From: Bacteroidaceae bacterium
GTDB lineage: Bacteria > Bacteroidota > Bacteroidia > Bacteroidales > Bacteroidaceae
NCBI GenBank assembly: GCA_045603885.1
Contig: JAZUMZ010000085.1
Location: forward strand, 132-64,131
DNA length: 64,000 nt
Reading direction: 5' to 3'
The notes below the pieces were generated by a model. It was given only the letters and a program-made list of their open reading frames with translations. It was not told the DNA's origin and did not search any database. Of the stretch, positions 3,593 through 60,724 are shown piece after piece. The first letter of the stretch is position 1. Each line of letters starts with the position of its first letter. The position numbers were made by a program, and so were the translations under genes.

Positions 3593-5407
3593 ATGAAAAA
3601 ATTATTTTTAACACTGCTTATGCCGGTTCTTGCCCTTGCCATGTTATCCTCATGCGACGATGTTCCGGCACCCTATTATGTTCTCAATCCTGAAGAAGCC
3701 GACACCAGCGTTGAGGGCGAAGGAACAGTTGAGACTCCTTTCACAGTAAAGGATGCACTGAATATTATCAGCGCAGGTACCTACTCAAGCGAGAAGGTTT
3801 ATGTTGCCGGTATCATCACTCAGATTGATGAGGTCAACGCATCATACGGCAATGCCACCTACTATATCGCCGACGAAAGCGCTATCAACGAGGACGGCTC
3901 TGTAAGCCAACAGCTTGAGGTTTACCGCGGTTCTGGCTTGAACGGCAACAAGCTTAAGGAAGGTGACATCAAGGTTGGAGACCGTGTTATTGTTTATGGC
4001 CAGTTGACTCTCTACGGCTCAACTCCCGAAGTGACCCAGGGCAGCATACTCTATATGCTGAACGACCAATACTCAGACACACCGAGTGATCCGACCGAAG
4101 GTGAGGCCACTGGTGACGGCTCCCGTGAGAATCCATTCAACAGCGTAGCTGCCAACCAATTATGCGCATCACTTGCCGACGGTGCTAAATCCGCTCAAAA
4201 ATATTACGTGAAAGGAAAAGTTGCCAGCATAAAGGAGAACTATGATGGTGTGAACCCGAAAACAGGCGAACCATACGGCAACGCAACATTCTACATTTCC
4301 GACGACGGCTCATCAAATGGCCAGTTCTATGTTTACCGCGCACTGTATTTGGGCAATGAGAAATACACAAACGGTGACCTACTGAAAGAAGGTGATAATG
4401 TTATAATTTACGGTTACCTGATGAAATATGTAAGCCAATATGGCACAACATACGAGACTTCTCAAAACGAAGCATTCCTGTTCTCTTTAAACGGATATTC
4501 CATTGACGGCGGTGATGATGACCCCGATCCTACTCCAAGCGGTGAGGCCACAGGCGACGGCACATTGAATAACCCTTACAATTCAGTTGCAGCAATCAAC
4601 GTCTGCAATCAACTTTCAGATGGTGCTAATACCCAAAATGATGTTTACGTAAAAGGTAAAGTTGTAAGCATTAAAGAAAACTATGATGTCGTAAACGCAA
4701 AAACCGGAGAAAAATATGGTAATATCACATGTTATATCTCCGATGACGGTACAACAAATAATCAATTCTATATTTTCCGCGCTTTATATTTCAACAAGAA
4801 AAAATATGAATCAGGAACAATGCCAAAGGTTGGTGACGATGTGATATTCTGTGGTAAGCTTACAAATTACAGGGGCAACACACCTGAAACCGTTCAGAAC
4901 GAGGCATATCTTTATTCTCTCAATGGCGAGACAGGCGACAGCATCAACAATGATCCGAATCCGAATCCTGATCCAGATCCAACTCCCACACCTACAGAAG
5001 GTGAGGGCGACGGCACGATGAACTCTCCCTACAATGTAGCAGCCGCACAATCTGTATATAACAGCGGTGCAACCGCAACCAAATCATTTGTTCATGGATG
5101 GGTAGTTGGTTATGTTAATGGTAATTCGTTGAACGCCAACACAGCAACATTCGACTATCCTGAGAAAGCTGGTGAGACCGAGGTTTTGATAGCCGACGAT
5201 CCAGATGAGACAGACTTCACAAAGTGTATCCCTGTCCAGCTCCCTAAAGGCGAGTTCCGCGAAAAGCTTGACTTGTATAACAATGGGCATATAATGTACA
5301 GGGACATCACCTTCTATGGTTCTATAGAAAAGTATTTCGGTGTGTGCGGCATCAAGAGTCCGACTTACGCTTACGGTGACGGAATCATAGTGGGCACACT
5401 TGAATAA
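3593..5407 (+). CDS. Lipoprotein with three tandem ~130-aa OB-fold-like modules plus a distinct C-terminal domain; probable surface ligand/nucleic-acid binding protein
   Basis: Lipobox LSSC followed by DD. There are three repeats of the pattern GE(G/A)TGDG..NP(F/Y)(N/T)..A......VYV.G.V..I......YGN(A/I)T.YI.D......(F/L).(V/I)(Y/F)R, separated by Pro/Asp/Thr linkers (NPNPNPDPDPTPTPT). Confidence 0.75.
   Translation: MKKLFLTLLMPVLALAMLSSCDDVPAPYYVLNPEEADTSVEGEGTVETPFTVKDALNIISAGTYSSEKVYVAGIITQIDEVNASYGNATYYIADESAINEDGSVSQQLEVYRGSGLNGNKLKEGDIKVGDRVIVYGQLTLYGSTPEVTQGSILYMLNDQYSDTPSDPTEGEATGDGSRENPFNSVAANQLCASLADGAKSAQKYYVKGKVASIKENYDGVNPKTGEPYGNATFYISDDGSSNGQFYVYRALYLGNEKYTNGDLLKEGDNVIIYGYLMKYVSQYGTTYETSQNEAFLFSLNGYSIDGGDDDPDPTPSGEATGDGTLNNPYNSVAAINVCNQLSDGANTQNDVYVKGKVVSIKENYDVVNAKTGEKYGNITCYISDDGTTNNQFYIFRALYFNKKKYESGTMPKVGDDVIFCGKLTNYRGNTPETVQNEAYLYSLNGETGDSINNDPNPNPDPDPTPTPTEGEGDGTMNSPYNVAAAQSVYNSGATATKSFVHGWVVGYVNGNSLNANTATFDYPEKAGETEVLIADDPDETDFTKCIPVQLPKGEFREKLDLYNNGHIMYRDITFYGSIEKYFGVCGIKSPTYAYGDGIIVGTLE
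4097..4926 (+). repeat. Two adjacent ~390-nt in-frame repeat modules inside the 3593-5407 CDS (a third, more diverged copy lies at ~3709-4066)
   Basis: Module 2 runs EGEATGDGSRENPFNSVAANQL...EAFLFSLNG and module 3 runs SGEATGDGTLNNPYNSVAAINV...EAYLYSLNG. They are clearly alignable by eye at protein and DNA level. Confidence 0.7.
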
Positions 5408-48084: not shown

Positions 48085-48168
48085 TCATCTACATACGCTT
48101 ACCGCCTCCTTTGCTTTTTGTATTTCTAAAGCAACAAGTGTATCTCTCTCTTCGTTGGTCAAACTCAT
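48085..48168 (-). pseudogene. Truncated HEPN-domain gene (only the first 27 codons remain)
   Basis: Its ATG overlaps the MNT stop (ATGA). MSLTNEERDTLVALEIQKAKEAVSVCR* resembles the N-terminus of HEPN partners of MNT nucleotidyltransferases, which are normally ~120-135 aa. Confidence 0.5.
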
Positions 48169-48479
48169 AGTAATACTATTTTATCGTGTTCAACATTTTT
48201 GTAATAAGGCAAAAATGACCATTGACGCCATTGGTGTTTAGTATAAATATGTGGATTTATTTCCTCGCCGATTTCCCACCCCATTTGTCTGAGAGGATAT
48301 GTAAGGTCGTAGTCTTCTGCTGTGAGTTTATTTTTGTCAAGCAAAATCAGCAAATCCCAGTCGGAATTCTTACGAGCGTCACCACGAGCCCTTGAACCAT
48401 AAAGTAACAAAGTGCTATCAGGTGGCAATGTAGTTCTTCCTACAGATTTAATTTTTTCAATAATTTCTTGTTGTCGCAT
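48165..48479 (-). CDS. Nucleotidyltransferase (MNT-type, HEPN/MNT toxin-antitoxin family)
   Basis: LLLYGSRARGDARKNSDWDLLILL matches the GSxxRGxxxxxSDxD minimal nucleotidyltransferase motif. 104 aa. Confidence 0.8.
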   Translation of the reverse strand: MRQQEIIEKIKSVGRTTLPPDSTLLLYGSRARGDARKNSDWDLLILLDKNKLTAEDYDLTYPLRQMGWEIGEEINPHIYTKHQWRQWSFLPYYKNVEHDKIVLL

Positions 48480-48581: not shown

Positions 48582-48612
48582 TTTGTTGGTTACAAAAAAA
48601 CTTGTAAATTTG
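48582..48612 (+). promoter_or_regulatory. Bacteroidota promoter of island-B operon (-33 TTTG 48582-48585, -7 TAAATTTG 48605-48612)
   Basis: Same architecture and position as the 33424-33455 promoter within the duplicated element. Confidence 0.6.
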
Positions 48613-48985: not shown

Positions 48986-49267
48986 ATGAAAAAGATTATA
49001 GTTTTATTGTTGTCTGTATTTATCGTAATAATTCCCATCTTCGGACAGAATCCGTTGGAAAATGCCGTGGTTTCCTATCAGACGGAAGGGCTACAGTTGA
49101 TGATAAAAATTGGTGGCATGCGACTTTCACTTGTAAGAAATGTGGACATCAATCCATATGGAAGTTTAAAGAAAATTAATCTAAATTTAAAGGTTCGTCA
49201 TCAGACTTTTCTTTTAGGGGTTAAATCCCTTAAGAATTGTCTGATGAAGAACTGTTTTGACTATTAA
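48986..49267 (+). CDS. Small secreted protein, unknown function
   Basis: The ATG at 48986 gives MKKIIVLLLSVFIVIIPIFG|Q. 93 aa. First gene after leader copy B. Confidence 0.55.
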   Translation: MKKIIVLLLSVFIVIIPIFGQNPLENAVVSYQTEGLQLMIKIGGMRLSLVRNVDINPYGSLKKINLNLKVRHQTFLLGVKSLKNCLMKNCFDY

Positions 49268-49279
49268 AAGACATGACCA

Positions 49280-49777
49280 ATGAAAAGATTAATATTGTTA
49301 TACTTGTTCAGCATTACCTATATAATTGGAATCCAAGCTCAGGACTCTCGATATGTAGGCACCTGGAAGTGGCATTATGACTCCCCCTATGAGGATGGAG
49401 AAGAAGGAATGCCTCCTCGGGATGAATATATAAAAATAAATATAGAAGATGGAAGTGTATGGATTAGTATTAAAATGGAAGGGAAAGATGGTAATGGGCA
49501 TCCTTTTGTAAGTCGAGAAGAAGCAGAAGATATAAGAGTGAATAGTGATGGTTCCATCTCTTTTAGACGATATATTTGTAAAAAAGAATATGACAACGAT
49601 AAGCAACTTTATCTGACTGTTTGGGACTCTTATACTGTCCGTTATGCTGGAGGGAGACTTATTTCAAATGAAGAAGTCAATGAAGAATCATATTCAGCAA
49701 ATGGAATTTTAGTCAAATCAGAATACCACAAAATGCCTCGGAAGAAAACATATTATAACGAAAAAGATAATTGGTAA
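49280..49777 (+). CDS. Small secreted protein, acidic-Trp C-terminus family, member 1 (lipocalin-like GxW start)
   Basis: Signal peptide ...GIQAQ|D. The mature N-terminus has YVGTWKW, the central block is EYIKINIEDGSVWISIKME, and the C-terminus is YYNEKDNW. Confidence 0.7.
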   Translation: MKRLILLYLFSITYIIGIQAQDSRYVGTWKWHYDSPYEDGEEGMPPRDEYIKINIEDGSVWISIKMEGKDGNGHPFVSREEAEDIRVNSDGSISFRRYICKKEYDNDKQLYLTVWDSYTVRYAGGRLISNEEVNEESYSANGILVKSEYHKMPRKKTYYNEKDNW

Positions 49778-49796
49778 TCAATTATAGAAAATAATA

Positions 49797-50282
49797 ATGA
49801 AGAAACTACTATTATTGCTAATGTTTGCTTTTGAATCTTGTAATCTCTTAGCACAGGATTGTAATTTGTGTGGTACTTGGATAGGAGTGTTTAGAGTATT
49901 TCTAGACGGTGACAACACAACTAAGAGGCTTTATATAGACATTAAAAAAACATATAGGGACAAATATGTTGTTAGGGTTAAAGAAGTATATACATATAAT
50001 GACCAAAGCTCTAAAACATATTATTGGCATGAATGCATGGACGTAAACGCAAATAAAAACGTCATTACGTGGAAAAGTTTCAGTCATCAAATTGATGATA
50101 ATGAGGATGGTGGCTACGAGAAATACTATTATGTATGCACGGCAAGAGTAGATAATGGAATATTGTACTTTAAACAAATGGTTGAAGGTTTTTATTATGG
50201 AAGAAATGGAGAAATAATAGGCGAATATAACCAACCGGCATATCCAACGAAAGAATTATATAAAGACGAAGATAACTGGTAA
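49797..50282 (+). CDS. Small secreted protein, acidic-Trp C-terminus family, member 2
   Basis: Signal peptide ...LLAQ|D. Blocks are CGTWIGVF, then LYIDIKK...KYVVRVKE, then the C-terminus LYKDEDNW. Confidence 0.7.
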   Translation: MKKLLLLLMFAFESCNLLAQDCNLCGTWIGVFRVFLDGDNTTKRLYIDIKKTYRDKYVVRVKEVYTYNDQSSKTYYWHECMDVNANKNVITWKSFSHQIDDNEDGGYEKYYYVCTARVDNGILYFKQMVEGFYYGRNGEIIGEYNQPAYPTKELYKDEDNW

Positions 50283-50300
50283 CAAATATTTTTTGAGTTT

Positions 50301-51110
50301 ATGAAAAGAACCTTAATAACGTCTATTTTTATTTGTTTGTCGTTCATAAATGTAATGACATTATGGTCTTTTAACTCCCATTCATTTACAGGAAAGAGAA
50401 TCAATGTTTTCAGCGAAGTTAATGACGATTGGATTCTTATTGGCGAAGTTTCTTTGTCTAACTATAATTCTGGCTACGAACCAATCACTGCAAAATTGTA
50501 TGTCAGAGAGATTGCTAAGGAACTTATCTATCGGGTAGAATATCAAGGAGCGTTTTATGCTACCAGATGGCATGATGATTCCAAAACATACCATGTAACA
50601 ATAAACGGCAAGACATATAGATGCGATGTGCCTGTCAATTCTACAGAAAATGAAACGGAGAGTGGAAACTCCGCGAAATTCGTTGGTAAGTGGAAGTTAG
50701 GACATCTGGGATGGTATATGGATATATCTTTTAACAATGGCAGATATAGTTTTAATTTAAATCCCGACTTAATAGGAGAGATAGTAGAATTTCAAGAGAC
50801 ATCAAACGGCATCGTATTTACTTATGTAGAAAAGTTTGACAAGCGCCCCGAGTTGAACAGAAAAGGTTGGCGGTATTATTATGATGAACGAGACAACAAA
50901 GCAGACCCTGGCTATCCGACCAGCGGAAGATATGAATACGACAGAGAGGTAGTGTATTATACAGCTTCTATTGCCTTATCAGACAAAGCACCAGTCCGCA
51001 AAATGATAAAGATGCATACTTACTATTACTTGGGAACAGCATTAACCTATGCTGATACAGATACGGATTTTAATATGCCTGGTTTTACTACAGAACTAAC
51101 AAAATATTGA
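50301..51110 (+). CDS. Secreted two-domain protein, unknown function (second half has an FVGKWKL lipocalin-like start; no acidic-Trp tail)
   Basis: Signal peptide present. 269 aa. Ends in ...TELTKY. Confidence 0.6.
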   Translation: MKRTLITSIFICLSFINVMTLWSFNSHSFTGKRINVFSEVNDDWILIGEVSLSNYNSGYEPITAKLYVREIAKELIYRVEYQGAFYATRWHDDSKTYHVTINGKTYRCDVPVNSTENETESGNSAKFVGKWKLGHLGWYMDISFNNGRYSFNLNPDLIGEIVEFQETSNGIVFTYVEKFDKRPELNRKGWRYYYDERDNKADPGYPTSGRYEYDREVVYYTASIALSDKAPVRKMIKMHTYYYLGTALTYADTDTDFNMPGFTTELTKY

Positions 51111-51113
51111 ACT

Positions 51114-51650
51114 ATGAAGAAAATGATTATATTAACCCTTTGTCTACTTTGCGGTTTGTCAGTAGCAACTGCACAAAGTCAAGATCCGTGGGTAGGAACA
51201 TGGACTTCTGAAAGCTACAAGGCATTAGACAGTGAATCAGAAGGACAAGAATACACTAATTATCGGTACGTTATTAGAATCTCAAAAAATGGAGATAATT
51301 ATTTCGTGAGAGCCAAAACTATCAAAGTTGCAGACCCTGAATCAGCAATCTATAATGATGCTTATGGTATTAAAAATTCACAAGCCAAGATTGACGGTAA
51401 TAGAATGCTGGTTGAATCTCGCAGGGAAAAGATTCCATTTTATGTAAATGGACGAGTCGATTCATATTCCAACACAACATCATATTTCGAATTAACGATT
51501 AACAACGGAACATTACATTGTTCTTTTTACAAATATGTAGTTGAGAGTTATGATAAGAATATGAGATATGAATACACTAACACATTTGGCTTACATGAAC
51601 AATATCCCGGCCCATGTGTTGAACGCGATTTATTCAACGATGATTGGTAA
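51114..51650 (+). CDS. Small secreted protein, acidic-Trp C-terminus family, member 3
   Basis: Signal peptide ...VATAQ|S. Blocks are WVGTWTSE, then YVIRISKNGDNYFVRAKT, then the C-terminus LFNDDW. Confidence 0.7.
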   Translation: MKKMIILTLCLLCGLSVATAQSQDPWVGTWTSESYKALDSESEGQEYTNYRYVIRISKNGDNYFVRAKTIKVADPESAIYNDAYGIKNSQAKIDGNRMLVESRREKIPFYVNGRVDSYSNTTSYFELTINNGTLHCSFYKYVVESYDKNMRYEYTNTFGLHEQYPGPCVERDLFNDDW

Positions 51651-51693
51651 ACTTTTTCAGTACATAACAAGGAAAATAAAATAGGATTCAATT

Positions 51694-52230
51694 ATGAGAA
51701 AATATCTATTAACAATTCTGCTTTCATTGCTATGTTTGATTAATGCAATGGCACAAGAACCCGCAATTTGTGGAGATTGGATAGGATTGTATAAAAGCGA
51801 AGCCATTTCAGATGATGTGGATAGTGATGGGAGTAAGTATCTAGTCCAAAAAGATTATAGGCGTTACATTAGAATTAAACTAATAGGTGACAATTACACT
51901 GTTAGAATGAAGACTAGGATTGCGGATGAGAGTTCTCCTTTCACATATTCTCCGGAATGCCAAATTATCGAGGCAAACGACAGAATTATCAAATGGAAAA
52001 TGAATTTGGGACCTTCATACGATTGGAACCCATCAGACAGGCATAAAGGAATACCCATTGGCCATGCTGATTATTATGAATATTGTACTGTTGTGCTTTC
52101 TAATGGAACATTAAAATACTCTGAATATATGTTGACTATCTATTATGATAGACAAGGCCGAGAAATTGACAAACAAAAATGGTTTGAAAAAGATGGCCAG
52201 ACTTTATATAAAGAAGACTCTGATTGGTAA
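51694..52230 (+). CDS. Small secreted protein, acidic-Trp C-terminus family, member 4
   Basis: Signal peptide ...NAMAQ|E. Blocks are CGDWIGLY, then RYIRIKLIGDNYTVRMKTRIADESSPF, then the C-terminus LYKEDSDW. Confidence 0.75.
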   Translation: MRKYLLTILLSLLCLINAMAQEPAICGDWIGLYKSEAISDDVDSDGSKYLVQKDYRRYIRIKLIGDNYTVRMKTRIADESSPFTYSPECQIIEANDRIIKWKMNLGPSYDWNPSDRHKGIPIGHADYYEYCTVVLSNGTLKYSEYMLTIYYDRQGREIDKQKWFEKDGQTLYKEDSDW

Positions 52231-52250
52231 TAAGAAAAAAATCAAGCAAT

Positions 52251-52862
52251 ATGAAACAACTAATTATAATTTCTGTATTATTATTGTCATCACTTTCATC
52301 ATACGCACAATACGATGATGAAATATATACCGTAAATATCACGGGAGCTCCGAGCATTACACTTGACTATATGCGCAATCCTGGAGATATGGATACGCAT
52401 TCTTTCAATCAAGATAACAATCTGGGCACCTATTATCCTGACGACGATGGCGTAATTCGCATAGAATTGTCAAAAGGATACTATCAGTATTTAGTCCATT
52501 GGAATTCACACGGTCCACAAAACGGGAGTTTCTATATAAAAGATAGAAATGTATATTTTGAAATTCGTATGCTTCCTCCCTATTGCAATATAGATACGAA
52601 GAAAACTATTGAGAAAGCATACAGATGTTTGTCTAATAAGAAAAAGAAAGAAGCACGTGAGTTATTCTATATTGCGGCAGAGGCAGGAAATGCCGATGCG
52701 ATGTTTGACTATGCACGAATATGCTGGAATGGTATAGGTGGCGGGAAAAACAAAAACCATGCTTACCATTATATAAATGAAGCATTAAAACATGGGCACC
52801 CATTAGCGGCTACCTATATAGAACATTTTAAAGATAAATACGTTTGGAAATGGTACTTATAA
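52251..52862 (+). CDS. Secreted protein with N-terminal beta-rich domain and C-terminal Sel1-like repeats
   Basis: The ATG at 52251 gives MKQLIIISVLLLSSLSSYAQ|Y; the ORF-track start at 52224 is a TTG. C-terminal SLR block AAEAGNADAMFDYARICWNGIGGGKNKNHAYHYINEALKHGHPLAA. Paralog of 58643-59257. Confidence 0.7.
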   Translation: MKQLIIISVLLLSSLSSYAQYDDEIYTVNITGAPSITLDYMRNPGDMDTHSFNQDNNLGTYYPDDDGVIRIELSKGYYQYLVHWNSHGPQNGSFYIKDRNVYFEIRMLPPYCNIDTKKTIEKAYRCLSNKKKKEARELFYIAAEAGNADAMFDYARICWNGIGGGKNKNHAYHYINEALKHGHPLAATYIEHFKDKYVWKWYL

Positions 52863-52966
52863 AGGCCTGTTTTATGATAACAGCATTAACCGCCATTTCT
52901 GATAGATTATCTATGGGGAAGCCGAAAACCATATAGAGTAGGCAATAAACTAAATAAGTGTTACTT

Positions 52967-53161
52967 ATGGAGAACTTTAAATTATCTAATTTGCGCGAAC
53001 TCTCCACAGAGGAGCAGTTAAACTTGAATGGTGGCTTCGGCTCGAATGCTTCCTGTTCATGCTCTGGATGCAGTTGCTCATGCAGTGAAAAGAGTCCTAA
53101 AGCAACTGTAGATGAGGTCACAGATGGTGCCAAAGAGGCTGTAAAGGATGCAAAGCGTTAA
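52967..53161 (+). CDS. RiPP precursor peptide A (23-aa double-glycine leader + 41-aa core with 5 Cys)
   Basis: The sequence is MENFKLSNLRELSTEEQLNLNGG|FGSNASCSCSGCSCSCSEKSPKATVDEVTDGAKEAVKDAKR. The leader is nearly identical to that of the next ORF. The gene sits directly upstream of the C39-ABC exporter and rSAM genes. The ATG is at 52967; the ORF-track start at 52958 is a GTG. Confidence 0.75.
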   Translation: MENFKLSNLRELSTEEQLNLNGGFGSNASCSCSGCSCSCSEKSPKATVDEVTDGAKEAVKDAKR

Positions 53162-53180
53162 TTCTTAAAAACAGTAACTC

Positions 53181-53411
53181 ATGGATACTTTTAGATTGAC
53201 CAATCTACGCGAGCTCTCAACAGAGGAGCAGCTGCGTATTAATGGAGGCATGGATTCCACTGGTTGTAAAGCAGACTGTGGTGCTTGTACTTGTCCCTGT
53301 AAATGCAATAGCAAGAATCCTTCGAAGTCGGTAGGAGAAAGCAATGCAGATTCTGGCGACAATTCAGCCCTCGCCCAACGTAAAGTTACCGCTGCAATGC
53401 AGTCAATGTAA
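53181..53411 (+). CDS. RiPP precursor peptide B (23-aa double-glycine leader + 53-aa core with 6 Cys)
   Basis: The sequence is MDTFRLTNLRELSTEEQLRINGG|MDSTGCKADCGACTCPCKCNSKNPSKSVGESNADSGDNSALAQRKVTAAMQSM. Confidence 0.75.
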   Translation: MDTFRLTNLRELSTEEQLRINGGMDSTGCKADCGACTCPCKCNSKNPSKSVGESNADSGDNSALAQRKVTAAMQSM

Positions 53412-53414
53412 AGA

Positions 53415-55583
53415 ATGCCTCGATTCCGTATTGTTTACCAGCATGAGCAAGAAGACTGTGGAGCAGCTTGCCTTGCAATGATTTTACGCTTTTATGGCTT
53501 CCAAGTAACATTGGAGGCTATAAAGGCTTTTTGTGGTAACATGAAAAACGGAATAACGATGCTGGGATTAAACCGTTCTGCAAAACGAATCGGCTTTGCA
53601 ACGCAGGCAGTTCGGTTGAATGAAATGGAATTATTCAACTTAGAAGAAAGTCTATGCCCATTCATTGCATACTGGCGTCAAAATCATTTTGTAGTGGTTT
53701 ACAAAATTTCTGCCCAGCATGTTTATGTTGCAGACCCCGCAATTGGTAGAATCCGATACAACAAAAGAGAGTTTCTGGATGGCTTTGCATTATCAGAAAC
53801 CTCCGATGGCTTTGTTTTGCTATTAAAGCCAGAAAACATAAAAAAGGAGACAATACAAGAAGAACAACGAATTGGTATTAACCTACAAGATTACATTAAA
53901 CCTCGGTGGAAGGAGTTAACGTGGACTGTAGTCTCTTTATTAATTCTTTCTGCTATTGGCCTTATCTTTCCTTTTCTTACTCAGGCAGTAGTAGATAAAG
54001 GTATAGCAGAAAAAAGCCCAAGTATCCTGTTGGTTATTTTATGTGCCACGCTTTCATTAACCATAGGACGCGCTCTTTTTAGCTTTCTGCAATCGCGAAT
54101 GACCTTAGTCGCAGGGACACTAATTGATATAGAATTAGCCAATAATCTTTTGGTGAGACTGTCGGCTTTGCCTATGAAATTCTTTGCAGCCCGTAAGGTT
54201 GGTGATATGATACAGCGTGTTTCGGACATTTCTCGAATAGGCGACTATTTCTCCTCACGTATAGCAGAAAGCATTCTTTCAACATTGATGTTCTGCATAT
54301 ATGCCGGAATCTTATTATATTTGTATCCGTTGCTATTTGTTGTATTTATGATAGGAGCAACCTTATATATATCGTACATCCTCCTATTCCTACGCCGTAG
54401 GAAGATTCTTGACTACGAATTCTTTGGTGCTGCTTCAAAATCCCAAGAAGAATTGATACAATACTTACGGGGCATGACTGAATTGAAATTAGCATGTGCA
54501 GAAGATGAGCGCCTGGGTATATGGAAGAAATATAGGTATGAACTTTTTAGCGTAAGCCGTCGAAGCCTTATGCTATCGCAAAAACAAGAATTAGGGAGTG
54601 TCTTTATTTTCCAAGTTGTAGATGCAATCACAATATACCTGATGGCAATAGCTGTGATTGACGGAAATACCACTTTGGGGTCGATGATGGCCGTTCAATA
54701 TATTATTGGGAGCATGGAGAATCCTTTGCACATTGTTACAAGATTTATCCGAGATACGCAAAGTATGCAAATTGCTCTTACGCGTATCAATTATATAGCA
54801 TCGTCAGAACCAGAGAAGAGCGGAAATACTCGGTTCTCCTCACATGACATCCCCCCTTCGATTAAAATAGACAACATAACATTTTCTTATGACATTGATG
54901 ATAATAAACCAGCATTACTAAATGTAAATGTAATTATTCCATCTGGTAAAACGACTGCCTTAGTAGGGATGAGTGGAAGCGGAAAAACAACACTTCTAAA
55001 ACTATTGCTTGGTTTCTATTCTCCCGATAATGGCTCTATTTATGTCAATAATGAAAGACTGTCTGATTTTGATTTGTCAGATTGGCGGAAGTGTATTGGA
55101 GCCGTTATGCAAGATGGATACATTTTTTCGGATACTATTACAAAGAATGTTGCTTTGGGTGATACTAATCCTTCAATTGAAAGGATTAAAGAAGCACTTC
55201 GAATATCGTGCGCAGACTTTGTCTTCGCATTACCCGTCGGATTAAACACCATCATTGGAGCTGAAGGAATGTCACTCAGTATGGGGCAACGACAACGTAT
55301 TTTACTTGCAAGAGCTATTTATAAACGTCCATCTCTTTTTCTTTTAGATGAAGCTACAAATGCTTTGGATGCCATTAACGAACGGCATATATATGAAAAC
55401 TTAAATTCTGAATTGAAGGGGAAAACTGTTGTAATAGCAGCGCATCGGTTGAGTACCATTAGCAATGCTGACCAAATACTTGTATTTGATGAGGGACGTA
55501 TAGTTGAGAGCGGAATACATACGGAACTAATAGAAAAGAATGGCAAATATGCTGAGTTGGTGCGTAATCAGCGTTTCAATTAA
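53415..55583 (+). CDS. Peptidase C39 domain-containing ABC transporter (bacteriocin/RiPP leader-cleaving exporter)
   Basis: N-terminal C39 motif QHEQEDCGAACLAMIL. Six-TM ABC membrane domain. Walker A GMSGSGKTT, signature LSMGQRQR, Walker B LFLLDEAT. Confidence 0.9.
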   Translation: MPRFRIVYQHEQEDCGAACLAMILRFYGFQVTLEAIKAFCGNMKNGITMLGLNRSAKRIGFATQAVRLNEMELFNLEESLCPFIAYWRQNHFVVVYKISAQHVYVADPAIGRIRYNKREFLDGFALSETSDGFVLLLKPENIKKETIQEEQRIGINLQDYIKPRWKELTWTVVSLLILSAIGLIFPFLTQAVVDKGIAEKSPSILLVILCATLSLTIGRALFSFLQSRMTLVAGTLIDIELANNLLVRLSALPMKFFAARKVGDMIQRVSDISRIGDYFSSRIAESILSTLMFCIYAGILLYLYPLLFVVFMIGATLYISYILLFLRRRKILDYEFFGAASKSQEELIQYLRGMTELKLACAEDERLGIWKKYRYELFSVSRRSLMLSQKQELGSVFIFQVVDAITIYLMAIAVIDGNTTLGSMMAVQYIIGSMENPLHIVTRFIRDTQSMQIALTRINYIASSEPEKSGNTRFSSHDIPPSIKIDNITFSYDIDDNKPALLNVNVIIPSGKTTALVGMSGSGKTTLLKLLLGFYSPDNGSIYVNNERLSDFDLSDWRKCIGAVMQDGYIFSDTITKNVALGDTNPSIERIKEALRISCADFVFALPVGLNTIIGAEGMSLSMGQRQRILLARAIYKRPSLFLLDEATNALDAINERHIYENLNSELKGKTVVIAAHRLSTISNADQILVFDEGRIVESGIHTELIEKNGKYAELVRNQRFN

Positions 55584-55604
55584 GGACATTAAAAAGATAA
55601 TCAT

Positions 55605-57218
55605 ATGACTACGAAACATGAAGCCCTGAATTATTTGAAGGAAAACTATCCTTTGGTAAAGATTGTCGATTTTGACACTCTTAGTAAGTTATTTTATGAT
55701 GCGAGAGCACATATGCTATTCGTCGTCGGTGAAGAAGACCTACCTATCATTGCGGATTACCTACGTACTCACGACAAGGCTTTCCTAAACAAAGAATATC
55801 CACATTTCAGTGGCATTGATGGTATTATAGAACGTATAGATGACTTGCAAAACAAAGGCGTACTACTTCCTGGCCCAGTTGAACAACTAATCAGCACTGA
55901 ACCAGACGAAGTATATAAACGAATTGAGTATAATATTGAAAACATATTGATGCGTAAATTCGTACTGGAAACCACACAGCAATGTAATTTCAGATGTCGC
56001 TATTGCCATAACACGCTCGAATCTGTATATCGCCATCATACTAAAAGCCAGATGATGTTTCCTGTTGCAAAAGCTGCGATAGACTTTTACAAGGATATGT
56101 ATTTAAAATTCTACAGACGTCTACCTGATGAGAAAAAGGAATTGTTGCTTAAACATTTCAAGCCTTTTGTTGGGTTTTATGGGGGAGAACCGTCGCTTAA
56201 CTGGAATCTGGTAAAAGAAGCATCAGATTATTTCTTGAATTGTGGTTGGGAGAATGATGGAATTAACCAGAAAGATTTAGAAATATCTATAAATACAAAT
56301 CTATATATCCTAACAGATGACATGATGTCCTTCATATTGTCATATCAACCTCTCTTGTTTGTTTCTCTTGACGGGCCAAAAGAAGATAATGATCGAAATA
56401 GAATAACCGCTGACGGCAAGGGAACATTTGACAAGGTTTATTCTAACTTGATGCGAATAAAAGATGCAGATGAAAAATACTTTAAGGAAAAGATGTTGAT
56501 ATTATGTGTGGAAGCTGAGGGTAATGATAGTAAAGCAGTACATAACTTATTAGATAATCTTGGATGTCCTATAAGCTATTTAAAGGAACAACCATTTGGA
56601 TGTCTTGAACGTGAGCCAGAGAAACAGGTCCAATATTATGATGAGAACGAAGAACGTATGATTAATTCGGTCATCGATAATTATAAACATCGCGCCTCTG
56701 AGAATGATCCCAACGCAATAGAAGAATTTTCTTCATTATATTTTCTGGAAGGAGTTGAAAGTGACACGCCCTACTATCGTCGTCCTATATCAATTAGTCT
56801 CACATGTCCGCTTTGTGTTGACAATATTATGATTGGAACTAAGGGGGAAATGCATCTATGCCATAAGACGGATGGCTCCTTGCCACTCGGAAATGTTTGT
56901 GAAGGTGGGTATGACATGAAAAAAATGTTCGAAGCCTATCAAAGCTATGGAGAGGCAACAAATTGTATAGAATGTCGTAGTTGTTGGGCGATGAATGTCT
57001 GTAGCTACTGCGCAGCCTTGCGTCTTGATGGTGGAAAATGGGTAAATCCCAAACATGAAGAATGTGATTTACAAAGAAGACGTGTCGAATATCTTCTTAA
57101 ACTCTTTGTCGCGATGTATAAGTTAGACCCAACCATCTTGCCAAAACTAATGGAAAGGAAAAGGGATTTGAATATCTATAAGTCTATTGTTGATTTTAAT
57201 TCTTTTGTCAATTTATAA
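55605..57218 (+). CDS. Radical SAM/SPASM-domain peptide maturase
   Basis: CNFRCRYC (CX3CX2C) at aa 127-134. C-terminal auxiliary-cluster Cys motifs CPLC...C...C...CIECRSCWAMNVCSYC. A ~115-aa N-terminal extension precedes the rSAM core. Confidence 0.85.
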   Translation: MTTKHEALNYLKENYPLVKIVDFDTLSKLFYDARAHMLFVVGEEDLPIIADYLRTHDKAFLNKEYPHFSGIDGIIERIDDLQNKGVLLPGPVEQLISTEPDEVYKRIEYNIENILMRKFVLETTQQCNFRCRYCHNTLESVYRHHTKSQMMFPVAKAAIDFYKDMYLKFYRRLPDEKKELLLKHFKPFVGFYGGEPSLNWNLVKEASDYFLNCGWENDGINQKDLEISINTNLYILTDDMMSFILSYQPLLFVSLDGPKEDNDRNRITADGKGTFDKVYSNLMRIKDADEKYFKEKMLILCVEAEGNDSKAVHNLLDNLGCPISYLKEQPFGCLEREPEKQVQYYDENEERMINSVIDNYKHRASENDPNAIEEFSSLYFLEGVESDTPYYRRPISISLTCPLCVDNIMIGTKGEMHLCHKTDGSLPLGNVCEGGYDMKKMFEAYQSYGEATNCIECRSCWAMNVCSYCAALRLDGGKWVNPKHEECDLQRRRVEYLLKLFVAMYKLDPTILPKLMERKRDLNIYKSIVDFNSFVNL

Positions 57219-57463
57219 TGTCACATTATATGCAGAAAAAGAGTTCATATAAAGCCATTATCAAATATGCTGGATATGCTGTTATTATGATTATCCTGTT
57301 TTCTGCATTCATCTATAGAAATACTCTGCGTTCTCAATTGTCAGAATTGATGCAAAAATGCATTTTATGTAACTTTGAAAATCGACATCATTGTAAATAC
57401 TGCATGATGGGCCATCGGCAATGTTTTTTATGTGACAAGGTTCCTGTTGACTCAGATAAGTAG
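57218..57463 (+). CDS. Small single-pass membrane protein with three CxxC motifs, translationally coupled to the rSAM gene
   Basis: TAATG overlap with the rSAM stop. TM helix YAGYAVIMIILFSAFIY, then CILC...CKYC...CFLC. Confidence 0.55.
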   Translation: MSHYMQKKSSYKAIIKYAGYAVIMIILFSAFIYRNTLRSQLSELMQKCILCNFENRHHCKYCMMGHRQCFLCDKVPVDSDK

Positions 57464-57522: not shown

Positions 57523-58053
57523 ATGAGAAAAGTATTATTAGTAAGTTTATTGTCATTAATGAGTTTTATAACGACAATGGCACAACAATCCGCGATATGT
57601 GGGGATTGGATAGGTATTGCTCATGAAGCTGCATTTAAAGAGCATCCAGAAACTGGAAATATGATGAGAGTTGATGAAAAGTTGTATATTCGTATCAAAC
57701 AGATTGATGGGAAGTTTCAAGTGAGGATGAAAACACGAATTGCTGACGAAAGTAGGCCTTTTAATTATCTGCCAGAATGTAAAGTGATTTTTGTGAATGA
57801 CAATGTTGTAAAGTGGTCTCAAGACTGGGGGGGCAATAATGAAGGTAATTTAGGAAAAGAACAAGGTATTGTTGTGGGCAGGGACTCACAAATTGCATAT
57901 TATACAGCTGTATTAACTGATGGCGTGTTACGTCTTTCAGAAAAATATATTATCACCTATTATGACAGGCAAGGGCGAGTTATTACATCTAAAGATTTCC
58001 CTTCTAGTTATTCTAAGGGTGTCACTTTGTACAAAGAAGAGTCTGATTGGTAA
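57523..58053 (+). CDS. Small secreted protein, acidic-Trp C-terminus family, member 5
   Basis: Signal peptide ...TTMAQ|Q. Blocks are CGDWIGIA, then LYIRIKQIDGKFQVRMKTRIADESRPF, then the C-terminus LYKEESDW. Confidence 0.75.
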   Translation: MRKVLLVSLLSLMSFITTMAQQSAICGDWIGIAHEAAFKEHPETGNMMRVDEKLYIRIKQIDGKFQVRMKTRIADESRPFNYLPECKVIFVNDNVVKWSQDWGGNNEGNLGKEQGIVVGRDSQIAYYTAVLTDGVLRLSEKYIITYYDRQGRVITSKDFPSSYSKGVTLYKEESDW

Positions 58054-58068
58054 ACATTTAACTATTCA

Positions 58069-58595
58069 ATGATGAGAAAAGTATTATTAGCAAGTATGTT
58101 GTCCCTGCTTTGTTTGACAACAGCAATGGCTCAAAGACTCGCAATTTGCGGGGACTGGGTAGGAGTTTTTGAGAGTTTTAATATTTTCGACTCCAATGGA
58201 GACAGACATAGAGTTGATGCTAATTATAAACGGTATATTCGGATAAAGTTTATAGATGGCCAATACACCGTTAGGATGAAAACAAGAATAGCAGATAACA
58301 CAGAACCTTTCAATTATTGGTCAGAATGTCAAATAATAGAAGCTGACAACAGACAGATTAAATTGAAAATGGATTTAGGCCCTGAATAGGATTGGTCTTC
58401 AGACTCAAGACATAAAGGAATACAAATTGGTCATGCCGATTATAATATGTTTAACACAGAACGCTATTAAATGGAACATTAAAGTATTCTGAGTATATGT
58501 TGACCACATATTTTGACAGATTTGGTAGAGAAATAGACAGAGAGTACACATATGACAAAGAGCATTTGTTATACAAAGATGAAGATGATTGGTAA
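58069..58595 (+). pseudogene. Acidic-Trp C-terminus family, member 6, inactivated (in-frame TAG at 58387 plus a frameshift near 58450)
   Basis: The first 106 codons align with member 4 (CGDWVGVF...RYIRIKFIDGQYTVRMKTRIADNTEPF). After the TAG the homology continues (DWSSDSRHKGIQIGHADY). It then shifts frame (NGTLKYSEYMLTTYFDRFGREID...LLYKDEDDW*). Confidence 0.7.
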
Positions 58596-58642
58596 CGTTT
58601 GAATAACAAAGTTAAGAATAACCTATACAAAAACAAATTAAC

Positions 58643-59257
58643 ATGAAAACATTAATATCAATTATTGTGCTATTGTTATCAACAATCACAGCTCAAGGAC
58701 AATACGCTAATAACACATATACAGTAAATATCCCTGGAGTTTCGAGTATTATATTATTTTATCCAAGTGACTATGATGCTTCCAGATCATCTTCAGAAGC
58801 AGGTCCCTTTGACGGTGCAAATATTATGGGTACATATTATTCCGATATAGATGGCGTAATACGCATAGAACTCACAAAAGGGTATTATGAATATATAACA
58901 GAAAAAAACGGAATGAATGGAAGTTTTTTAATATCCGACCGCAACGTATATTTTAATATTTTAGAACTTCCCCCACTTTTTAGTATTGACACAGGGAAAG
59001 TACTTTCTCAAGCATATCAATATCTGTCTAACAAGCAGAAAAAGAGAGCACGAGAATTATTTCAAATAGCAGCTGATGCCGGTAATGTGAAAGCTATGTT
59101 TACCTATGCACGAATGTGTTACAACGGAATGGGAGGTGGAAAAAACAAGAATAATGCTTATCACTGTATAGTAGAAGCACAGAAACACGGTGATTCTATA
59201 GCTTCTTATTTCCTTGAAAACTTTAAGGACAAGAGGATTTGGAAATGGCATCTATAA
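58643..59257 (+). CDS. Secreted protein with N-terminal beta-rich domain and C-terminal Sel1-like repeats (paralog of 52251-52862)
   Basis: Signal peptide ...ITAQG|Q. Shared blocks YTVNIPG, GTYYSDIDGVIRIELTKGYYEY, AADAGNVKAMFTYARMCYNGMGGGKNKNNAYH, and the shared ending FKDK.(I/V)WKW(H/Y)L. Confidence 0.7.
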   Translation: MKTLISIIVLLLSTITAQGQYANNTYTVNIPGVSSIILFYPSDYDASRSSSEAGPFDGANIMGTYYSDIDGVIRIELTKGYYEYITEKNGMNGSFLISDRNVYFNILELPPLFSIDTGKVLSQAYQYLSNKQKKRARELFQIAADAGNVKAMFTYARMCYNGMGGGKNKNNAYHCIVEAQKHGDSIASYFLENFKDKRIWKWHL

Positions 59258-59474: not shown

Positions 59475-60724
59475 TTAGACATTATCCCACCTGTAGCAAT
59501 AGGGTTCAAGTATTTTGTGATTAATCTGTAACTCAGAAGCTGTTTTGCGCCAATCATTTATGGCGTCACGAACCTCGTCAATTATCTCAGTTGCGACCTC
59601 CCTCTCAAGCATATAGTATTCGCTTGCAGCGAGTAAGACATTTATGTCCGACTCTTCAGTGTATGCATCGATGAGCAAACACTGGTTAGATTTAGCCCCC
59701 GGATTGATGTCATAGGCAGGAGAGAGTGTCCAGCCTTTCGGGGTAAGCAGGAAGCCGTGATTGCGAAAGTGGTCATCAGTGTTGCCGAACATGATGTTGA
59801 ATGCCACTCTTCTATATAGTTCTCTGAGATTTTGGTGTACACCAGTGCAACCATGAAGTATGAAATCCACTATATCCAGATAACCATTGCCAGTGTTGCA
59901 TCCAGCTCCATCGTCAAGCCCAAGCAACGACATAGCTGAAGCAAAATGGATTCGATGTCCATCCTTTGTCCTGTCAAAACGCTCAGAGAGCAAAAGGTCG
60001 CGGTCTTTTGCAATCTTAACGGTTCGTGTCTTTGCCACCTTAATCCCGGCTTTGGCCGCAAGTTGATGAGAGAAATGTTCAATGAGCTCTGTATTCTCAA
60101 GGTCCTTTTTTGACGGAAATTTAGCCACATACAGTTTGCCATCGGTATCAACAATATTAGCCTTGGGACGCGCACCATCGAGCGAGGTTCCCGGGTCAAT
60201 CAGCTGATCAAGCCACCGTTGTTGAGGCAATTCGTTTCGTTCCTCCGCCAACTCGATCTCGTGACAGGCCTCACACAATCACGCAGACTCTCAATTGGAG
60301 GGACATGGTGTTTCGTACTTGCGTTGATGTAGCTATCGCTGTTTTCCTCTTTGTAACGTATGCCGCCCATACGAGTGAAGTCCTCAATACCGATAAGGTA
60401 GTCAAAGTCAGTGAGCATACGTTTCGGCCTCCTTTCTGCTTGTGCAGTCAGCCGCTCTCTGCGGTCAAGCAACAAACCTCCCCAACGGTCAGGGAAAGAA
60501 TCCTTGATGAAGCCGAAAACATTATCACTGCCGCGTGGATGCTGCAACGAGGGGACATTCATAAGATCACCGCTTAGAAGAATGCCGCCATACTGTTTCA
60601 GCCAGTCATTCGAAAACTCAAAGAAAAAATGGTCTTTGCCACGAACGTGTTCGTAGCCTAATATTCCTATTTCCATCGGGGAAGAGAGGAAATCAAAATC
60701 CGCACAAACTATTATTCTTTTCAT
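59475..60724 (-). pseudogene. hipA: HipA-family kinase toxin gene, frameshifted
   Basis: The N-terminal HipA domain ORF (60200-60724) and the C-terminal kinase ORF (59475-60278: GTSLDGARPKA...NTDDHFRNHGF) overlap in different frames. The frame changes near 60255-60285. Confidence 0.7.

Follow-up and report, generated by a model that had tools for sequence, protein, structure and literature searches.

A probable radical-SAM-modified peptide module with CxC-repeat precursors in a Bacteroidaceae bacterium

The gene cluster considered here lies at positions 52967-57463 of a 64-kb stretch of DNA, referred to as the window, from a Bacteroidaceae bacterium (GenBank assembly GCA_045603885.1, contig JAZUMZ010000085.1). 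It encodes two cysteine-rich precursor peptides, an ABC exporter with a C39 peptidase domain, and a radical S-adenosylmethionine (radical-SAM) enzyme. The cluster is genuine and far beyond chance because precursor open reading frames (ORFs) recur beside homologous radical-SAM genes in ∼60 loci. Judging from sequence comparisons, it belongs to an uncurated, compact, and horizontally spread three-gene family whose substrates carry CxC repeats. It is very probable that a peptide modified by the radical-SAM enzyme is exported by the peptidase-transporter. The explanation that best accounts for the observations as a whole, and which we consider probable, is a self-contained module of an uncurated family producing a peptide that is made by ribosomes and modified after translation (RiPP). 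The features of the locus are as follows.

52912..52944, + strand: DUF805b RNA motif (Rfam RF02914), 44.1 bits versus a gathering score of 35.6
52967..53161, + strand: precursor A, 64 residues, with a double-glycine leader, a CxCxxCxCxC core, and a 25-residue hydrophilic tail
53181..53411, + strand: precursor B, 76 residues, with a double-glycine leader, a Cx3Cx2CxCxCxC core, and a 34-residue tail
53415..55583, + strand: C39 peptidase-ABC exporter, 722 residues (PF03412, PF00664, PF00005)
55605..57218, + strand: radical-SAM peptide maturase, 537 residues (PF04055), with Cx3Cx2C at 127-134 and a SPASM-type C-terminus
57218..57463, + strand: membrane ORF of 81 residues with three CxxC pairs, a strain-level accessory outside the conserved module
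48987..52862, + strand: upstream context of uncertain association, comprising a zinc-ribbon remnant, five paralogs ending in ..DW, and one Sel1-repeat protein
57523..59257, + strand: downstream context of uncertain association, comprising one intact and one frameshifted ..DW paralog and a second Sel1-repeat protein

Re-inspection of the sequence located five ORFs on the same (+) strand. Successive genes, from precursor A to the 81-residue ORF, are separated by 19, 3, 21, and -1 nucleotides, a spacing that points to a single operon. A preliminary description of this DNA, made from its letters alone, had proposed a RiPP-type operon with double-glycine precursors, a reading that is supported here. 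The two adjacent precursors that it reported, with 23-residue leaders ending in Gly-Gly and five or six cysteines in 10-14 residues, are likewise present in full. The leader of precursor A is MENFKLSNLRELSTEEQLNLNGG and its core begins FGSNASCSCSGCSCSCSEK, with five cysteines within 10 residues (CSCSGCSCSC). For precursor B the leader is MDTFRLTNLRELSTEEQLRINGG and the core begins MDSTGCKADCGACTCPCKCNSK, with six cysteines within 14 residues (CKADCGACTCPCKC) and the motif NPSKSVG in the 34-residue tail. Both leaders end in NGG, and they have the same residue at 17 of 23 positions. Neither precursor gave a match above cut-off in NCBIfam or Pfam.

Orthologs of precursor A were observed in three related loci (L001, L123, and L136), and related type-A precursors in L002-L004. 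The cysteine spacing of precursor B is kept in L001, L003, L004, and L123. In all pairwise comparisons of 13 Bacteroidales precursors, the codon changes within the leader amount to 692 synonymous versus 391 non-synonymous, and the leader of the window precursor A differs from that of its L001 ortholog by 12 synonymous changes and one non-synonymous change. This synonymous-biased divergence, together with the recurrence at ∼60 loci, indicates that the small ORFs are real genes. On the evidence of the codons, purifying selection acts on the leader, whereas the core is diverging fast. The core of precursor B appears to vary among strains whose radical-SAM enzymes are at least 90% identical. In P0222 and P0226, precursor B is only 57-58% identical to that of the window, which suggests rapid diversification of the core, and the cysteine pattern has shifted from that of the window to CKSQCSCSCTCSC. 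If the pairing of these precursors with their enzymes, presumed from contigs of equal length, is correct, the latter appear to fall in the 90% identity cluster of the window maturase. Such fast diversification of the core between near-identical gut and rumen Bacteroidales strains is what would be expected of molecules of competition or recognition.

The exporter contains, in order, a C39 peptidase domain, a six-helix membrane domain, and an ATPase domain (PF03412, 1e-34, 119.6 bits versus a cut-off of 22; PF00664, 72.3 bits; PF00005, 100 bits). The catalytic triad of the peptidase is intact, with Cys 15 in QHEQEDC15GAACL, His 91 in NHF, and Asp 107 in VADP, in agreement with the C39-ABC exporter originally proposed. 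The ATPase motifs are complete as well: Walker A (GMSGSGKT), signature (LSMGQRQ), Walker B (LLDE), and H-loop (AHR). By these features the protein is a bacteriocin-type peptidase-containing ABC transporter, with scores under the equivalog cut-offs of TIGR03796 (427 versus 853) and TIGR01193 (378 versus 524). Almost every locus of the family has such an exporter next to the radical-SAM gene. No genes for membrane-fusion or outer-membrane export proteins were found near the module, either in the window or in the annotated related loci.

The maturase is placed in the radical-SAM superfamily by PF04055 (57.3 bits versus 29.5, E 2.9e-15). Its Cx3Cx2C motif, C127NFRC131RYC134, is invariant in 21 diverse homologs with identities down to 32%, as are seven additional cysteines at positions 401, 419, 457, 460, 466, 469, and 487. 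The C-terminus follows a SPASM-type pattern, with an invariant Gx4C and then C457xxC460x5C466xxC469, in line with the SPASM-like cysteine cluster of the preliminary description. That description had also pointed to an N-terminal extension of ∼115 residues as a potential peptide-recognition domain. In an alignment-based AlphaFold2 model of the maturase, with a mean predicted local distance difference test (pLDDT) of 90.6 and a predicted template modeling score of 0.87, the N-terminal domain (residues ∼1-85 of the extension) adopts a β3-α3 winged-helix fold. It is built from strands 18-22, 27-32, and 37-42 and helices 43-55, 58-64, and 71-83, all modeled with pLDDT >90. By topology it would be a PqqD-like RiPP recognition element, and it is predicted to bind the leader. 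A Foldseek search of the Protein Data Bank (PDB) with the model placed CteB first (5WHY/5WGG, E 6e-17, ∼510 aligned columns), followed by the anaerobic sulfatase-maturating enzyme (anSME), TigE, and ChlB. A search of the same database by sequence also gave CteB as the best match (E 3e-18). The enzyme is thus CteB-like: a recognition domain leads into the radical-SAM core, and the C-terminus is of SPASM type.

Comparison with curated NCBIfam models indicates in which company the maturase belongs. Its best model is CcpM (TIGR04068), at 155.2 bits versus a cut-off of 500, followed by the RumMC sactisynthase (NF035951, 136.8 versus 720), QhpD (113 versus 453), PapB (101 versus 340), the nif11-like maturase model (94 versus 519), and the SCIFF maturase (TIGR03974, 91.6 versus 425). 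The alignments to CcpM and RumMC are full-length and include the N-terminal domain. Nine of the ten top models stand for enzymes that mature peptides or proteins with cysteine targets, mostly thioether-forming where this is known: CcpM, RumMC, QhpD, PapB, TIGR04148, the SCIFF maturase, lachnocin, a ScfB-related orphan, and the nif11-like model. Models for cyclophane, darobactin, and sulfatase maturases score far lower. Four distant members of the family behave in the same way, with 171-227 bits for CcpM and 99.8-129.4 bits for TIGR04148, all below cut-off. Membership in the CcpM, RumMC, and SCIFF families was therefore rejected on the curated cut-offs, and the precursors gave no match to the SCIFF model (TIGR03973). 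The PapB, FibroRumin, Cxxx-repeat, and Cys-every-fifth families were rejected by the same measure.

Of the known systems, CteB/CteA (thermocellin, a SCIFF-type ranthipeptide; PDB entries 5WGG and 5WHY) is the closest in structure. Its order of recognition, radical-SAM, and seven-cysteine SPASM domains is that of the window maturase, and its substrate is cysteine-rich as are the window precursors, but the two enzymes are only ∼19% identical in sequence. To our knowledge, SCIFF systems have neither a double-glycine leader nor a C39 exporter. The precursor families of CcpM (TIGR04068, an uncharacterized Clostridial Cys-rich peptide maturase) and of RumMC (ruminococcin C) are unlike those of the window. 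For the substrate itself, the most direct precedent is found in StsA, the core of which carries a CxCxC donor block that forms three nested sactionines in a hairpin (PMC10288494). The StsA/StsB system thus provides a precedent for i,i+2 cysteine donors such as those of the CxC block in the window. StsB, however, is MftC-like and belongs to another radical-SAM group than the window maturase, and the StsA acceptors form a fixed GxGxG four residues downstream, whereas the tails in the window family are long, variable, and hydrophilic. Radical-SAM enzymes accompanied only by a peptidase-transporter have been reported bioinformatically in BGC1-type Bacteroidales clusters (PMC10352776). These clusters and the TIGR04148/TIGR04149 system share with the window cluster the double-glycine leader, the radical-SAM/SPASM maturase, and the Bacteroidales host, the likeness to BGC1 being drawn from architecture. 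No characterization of the CxC-repeat family was found in the literature, the supplementary data of the most relevant papers lying outside the scope of the search.

A homolog search with the maturase returned ∼90 clusters at E <1e-95, nearly all of them metagenomic proteins. When 1.84 billion representatives were searched exhaustively with HMMER, 107 proteins matched with E values no higher than 1e-30, ∼45 of which are near-full-length matches of >175 bits, and the family is accordingly small. Its loci number 37 from a genome scan and ∼27 from a metagenome scan, and the host genomes are all uncultured metagenome-assembled genomes (MAGs). The hosts include Bacteroidales, Muribaculaceae, Ignavibacteria, Chlorobiaceae, Nitrospirota, Deltaproteobacteria, Synergistaceae, Negativicutes, other Bacillota, and Acholeplasmataceae. 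With a range of at least eight phylum-level groups, the module is not specific to Bacteroidales as had been supposed. A phage origin was considered and rejected, as viral contigs gave only distant radical-SAM matches (24-27% identity) and no family locus. Beside the maturase there is, at nearly every locus, a C39 exporter together with one or two small ORFs. The gene order is precursors-exporter-enzyme in the close clade of the window and mostly precursor-enzyme-exporter elsewhere. In L010, L012, L017, L022, and L025 the module is surrounded by what look like unrelated housekeeping genes, from which it follows that the triad of precursor, enzyme, and exporter is the unit. Radical-SAM peptide clusters are common, and each uncharacterized family can hide new cross-link chemistry.

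The precursors of the related loci, 53 of them unique, align as one family. (A word-index-based homolog search with the precursors had returned only seven matches.) The family leader follows the pattern ..E(L/I)(S/D)...(A/Q)..(I/L/V)xGG, and the core consists of a CxCxC(xC)n block with 3 to 10 cysteines, the spacer residues being mostly S, D, N, T, and K. A hydrophilic tail follows the block, and many of the tails outside Bacteroidota end in T(T/M)L(N/S)T(F/Y)xx or ASTFAGGSQPW. The length of the tail increases with the number of cysteines: 16 residues for three, 19-25 for four, 23-34 for five, 27-34 for six, 45 for eight, and 42-46 for nine or ten. The Spearman coefficient is 0.86 for 52 unique precursors and 0.85 for 28 representatives with cores no more than 50% identical (4.3 residues per cysteine). 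The p-value of 9e-9 for the latter set overstates independence, since the precursor sequences are related, yet the trend spans tails that look unrelated. This scaling fits, by analogy, the donor-acceptor hairpin of known sactipeptides. With the module present in many phyla of anaerobes, the CxC repeats and the relationship between cysteines and tail amount to a testable structural hypothesis.

In the mechanism that we propose, the two precursors, exporter, and maturase would be expressed as one operon, probably under the control of the DUF805b motif ahead of it. The winged-helix domain of the maturase would bind the leader (..NLRELSTEEQL..NGG) ahead of the CxC block, and the enzyme, with three predicted [4Fe-4S] clusters, would then join the cysteine sulfurs of this block to carbons in the hydrophilic tail's acceptor residues, so that a hairpin or ladder bridged by several thioethers results. 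Multiple thioethers between the cysteines and the tail are the most likely modification because of the scaling, the StsA precedent, and the mostly thioether-forming character of the nearest enzymes. On balance, a thioether is the chemistry that we expect, while a hairpin or ladder as the specific topology is put forward tentatively. The bond may be to an α carbon (a sactionine) or to a side-chain carbon (a ranthionine), either being compatible with the sequence. The C39 domain would cut after the Gly-Gly pair, and the ABC portion would carry the product across the inner membrane. Given that no membrane-fusion or outer-membrane partner is located nearby, the product is expected to reach at least the periplasm in this diderm. 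Its biological role could be antagonism or signaling, and the rapid diversification of the core fits either.

Several observations weigh against this reading. The maturase reaches no curated NCBIfam cut-off. Its C-terminus scores 21.1 versus 27 with the SPASM model TIGR04085 and gives no match to PF13186, although the relative in L025 passes TIGR04085 at 32.5. Of the profiles suggested in the preliminary description, PF04055 and PF03412 were thus passed, whereas TIGR04085, TIGR04148, and TIGR04149 were not. No hidden Markov model recognized the N-terminal domain, and its assignment rests on the AlphaFold2 topology and the alignment with CteB. The relationship between cysteines and tail is correlative and was observed among kindred sequences, and in the 53-precursor alignment no acceptor residue of the tail is conserved family-wide. 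At the module there is neither an immunity gene nor an outer-membrane export partner, which is unusual for a diderm bacteriocin. Related loci encode secreted thioredoxins as well as CxxC proteins, a hint that some cysteines may remain free or become disulfide-bonded. Finally, the cluster is known from genes alone, and it is from these that we infer the thioether chemistry.

Some of the same observations would be accommodated if the cysteine block were a metal or redox site, similar to that of a metallothionein or metallophore. The radical-SAM enzyme would then catalyze an epimerization, a C-C or C-O cross-link, or a methylation, and the thiols would remain free or disulfide-bonded in the periplasm. 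CxC repeats are a hallmark of metallothioneins, and the missing conserved acceptor in the tail and immunity gene in the module would be in keeping with such a site. In six loci, one of them in a Bacillota MAG, the precursors are directly preceded by a gene for a secreted thioredoxin-like protein (WCxxC), and a thioredoxin-domain gene is found ∼3 kb upstream in L131. The six genes are as follows.

L001:2855-3271
L005:2347-2826
L006:4109-4519
L011:5023-5460
L037:5121-5561
L036:4863-5393

Small secreted proteins with CxxC pairs or a zinc-ribbon-like pattern also recur beside the module. One of these, with 81-92 residues and the pattern SDxCxKCKIT..KCGxCG..FTC..CxH, is found in L125/126 and L131 (46% mutual identity, E 4e-19), and other small secreted CxxC proteins are encoded in L001 and L006. 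In L002, L004, L026, L037, and L133 there are genes for small helix-turn-helix regulators. None of these thioredoxin, secreted CxxC, or helix-turn-helix neighbors is present in the window, which holds only a frameshifted remnant of the zinc-ribbon gene. Moreover, the thioredoxin and CxxC neighbors are missing from most of the loci outside Bacteroidales. The tail lengthens with the number of cysteines, which would be needless for a pure chelator, and both the nearest enzyme models and the closest solved structure are those of thioether-forming maturases of cysteine-rich peptides. We therefore regard a metal or redox site as unlikely.

Bacteroidetocin clusters contain a thiol oxidoreductase, which would parallel the thioredoxins of the related loci. 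The bacteroidetocins of Bacteroidales carry a double-glycine leader and are exported by a C39 peptidase-transporter (PMC10352776). Unlike the product expected from the window cluster, they are unmodified toxins, with neither a radical-SAM enzyme nor a CxC-repeat core.

It is very improbable that the cluster represents the TIGR04148/TIGR04149 system of Bacteroidales, the assignment that the preliminary description had put forward. The leaders are of a similar type, TIGR04148 (GG_samocin_CFB) lies within the first five or six enzyme models by score, and one precursor from a related locus, the best of them, reaches 23.2 bits with TIGR04149 (GG_sam_targ_CFB), for which the cut-off is 25. The window maturase, however, scores 100.8 bits with TIGR04148 versus a cut-off of 300, its relatives score only 100-129, and CcpM and RumMC score higher, while neither window precursor matches TIGR04149 at E up to 1. 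An azole-type peptide (a linear azole or thiopeptide), in which the cysteines and serines of the core would be heterocyclized, is scarcely credible. The CSCSCS cores do resemble those of azole peptides, and there are weak sub-threshold precursor matches to TIGR03892 (19.2 versus 25) and to TOMM BorA, while the literature on the motif yielded only genome papers of Brevibacillus strains that produce antimicrobials, but no YcaO cyclodehydratase or dehydrogenase was found in the window cluster or among the Pfam-annotated neighbors of the related loci examined, and the radical-SAM protein is the sole conserved enzyme of the module. Equally hard to credit is a radical-SAM protein with some function other than peptide maturation, such as a sulfatase maturase, beside fortuitous small ORFs: anSME does rank second among the structural matches, which is to be expected of any SPASM enzyme, but its model (TIGR03942) gives 54.7 bits versus a cut-off of 349 and lies far below the 155 bits of the best peptide-maturase model, which speaks against the sulfatase-maturase identity that the preliminary description had named as fatal to its proposal, and the protein is accompanied by a peptide-recognition domain, a leader-cleaving exporter, and precursor ORFs conserved beside the enzyme in ∼60 loci with synonymous-biased divergence of their leaders.

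The RiPP module is preceded by an RNA motif that did not figure in the preliminary description, nor did the family-wide CxC-repeat and tail architecture or the flanking arrays of secreted proteins described below. The match to RF02914 at 52912-52944 has an E value of 3e-9 for the whole window, covers model positions 1-35 and thus the full 35-position model, and ends 22 nucleotides ahead of the ATG of precursor A. RF02914 is classed in Rfam as a candidate cis-regulator. Above-threshold matches precede the first precursor in L001, L005, L007, L039, L123, L131, L133, and L135, and the zinc-ribbon protein in L125, L127, L129, and L131. Counting neighboring entries, the motif is placed ahead of first precursors in L123/124 and L133-135 and ahead of the zinc-ribbon-like protein in L125/126, L129/130, and L131/132. 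The following sites were located.

L001:3310-3342
L005:3304-3336
L039:2500-2532
L123:5313-5345
L125:4166-4198
L127:4600-4632
L129:14640-14672
L131:4974-5006 and 5277-5309
L133:5509-5541

A fuzzy pattern search of 1.22 Mb of related-locus sequence revealed 19 instances, all on the coding strand and each directly upstream of a small cysteine-rich ORF, either a precursor or a zinc-ribbon-like protein. Not one lies ahead of a DUF805 gene, for which the family is named, and there is no DUF805 gene in the window. The distance to the ATG is 20-31 nucleotides, with the exception of L007, in which the start codon is ambiguous. This near-fixed distance gives an orphan motif a defined genetic context. 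The block GG..A.GCCGAAAACC....AGAGTAGGC hardly changes from one instance to another, in contrast to the variable sequence on either side of it, and one stem pair covaries perfectly, being A-U in six and U-A in five of 11 instances. In the closest rumen clade the motif is missing from L002, L004, and L038, and the contig of L003 begins too near the precursors to tell. The same literature search found no functional study of the DUF805b motif. The motif probably controls expression of the operon, and it may do so either at the DNA level or as an RNA, which could conceivably form a small pseudoknot. A canonical Bacteroidetes promoter (TTTG..TAnnTTTG) was not found directly upstream of the precursors in a scan of the window, the nearest being at 48582-48612, and scans for sigma-70-type promoters and for terminators gave background level only.

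The operon sits in a low-GC island at ∼48.5-59.4 kb (33-40% GC versus ∼47% in the flanks), and the promoter match just mentioned marks the island start. No tRNA genes are present anywhere in the 64-kb window. Also within the island, at 49280-52230 and 57523-58595 (+), are seven paralogous secreted proteins of ∼160-270 residues that end in ..(Y/F)K(D/E)xxDW, one of which is split by a frameshift (58069-58595). Two paralogous Sel1-repeat proteins bracket the operon, at 52224-52862 (212 residues, +) and 58643-59257 (204 residues, +). The unit at 51673-52862, composed of a ..DW gene and a Sel1 gene, is repeated at 58051-59257 with ∼73% DNA identity at a distance of ∼6.4 kb, and the two copies thus bracket the operon. 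The ..DW family has no Pfam domain. An AlphaFold2 model of one member is all-β with a pLDDT of 90.6 and has no PDB fold match better than E 0.04. The family adjoins the module in L123, L136, L125/126, L002, L004, L006, and L131, and in L127 and L129 arrays of six to ten ..DW genes accompany Sel1 and zinc-ribbon genes at places where there is no RiPP module. Co-location and the shared DUF805b motif make a link between the ..DW/Sel1 proteins and the module suggestive. The zinc-ribbon-like remnant at 48987-49180 (+) is frameshifted, with a signal peptide in one frame and ..ATFTCKKCGHQ.. in another, and it has no DUF805b motif upstream.

These features can be drawn together into a wider reading, in which a new class of RiPP with a thioether ladder, DUF805b regulation, and a ..DW/Sel1 partnership would be joined, and which we consider rather doubtful when taken as a whole. 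The i,i+2 cysteine donors could give rise to a thioether ladder, with the number of donors setting the length of the tail. The DUF805b motif is possibly a very small ligand-sensing pseudoknot, in which a GCC in the loop pairs with a GGC in the tail, and it could co-regulate the precursors and the small secreted zinc-ribbon protein in Bacteroidales. The ..DW/Sel1 proteins might be immunity or receptor partners. If the wider reading is true, an RNA motif, an enzyme family, and a secreted-protein family, all three of them orphans, would gain a function from one locus.

The last ORF of the cluster is of lesser standing. The membrane protein of 81 residues noted in the preliminary description is indeed present, with one hydrophobic helix, three CxxC pairs, and a single-pass topology, and its ATG overlaps the stop codon of the radical-SAM gene by one nucleotide. 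It is not, however, a conserved part of the module. The ORF is identical in the near-identical strain L136, in which it is called from Met 5 (77 residues), and is absent from L123 despite a maturase that is 96% identical; there, the maturase gene is followed by a stem-loop with a T-run and then by a glutamate-synthase-like gene. A role as a conserved partner was rejected, as no homolog was found among the other related loci, and a relationship to the recurrent zinc-ribbon protein was likewise rejected (E 0.12).

In an environmental sub-clade, the module is followed by genes for an ATP-grasp-like peptide maturase of ∼330 residues and a second, peptidase-less ABC transporter (L013:10310-13100, L015:9982-12840, L020:10608-13353, and L023:10221-13024), which may provide a second modification step or belong to a neighboring cluster. 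At the right edge of the island in the window, a gene at 59475-60278 (-) encodes a HipA C-terminal kinase domain (PF07804, 5e-47). The ORF at 60200-60724 (-) that overlaps it on its upstream side may be its N-terminal part, and the gene would then be split or frameshifted. Just to the left of the island, an ORF of 104 residues at 48165-48479 (-), containing ..LYGSRARGDARKNSDWDLLILLD.., has, on reading of its sequence, the look of a small MNT/antitoxin-type nucleotidyltransferase.

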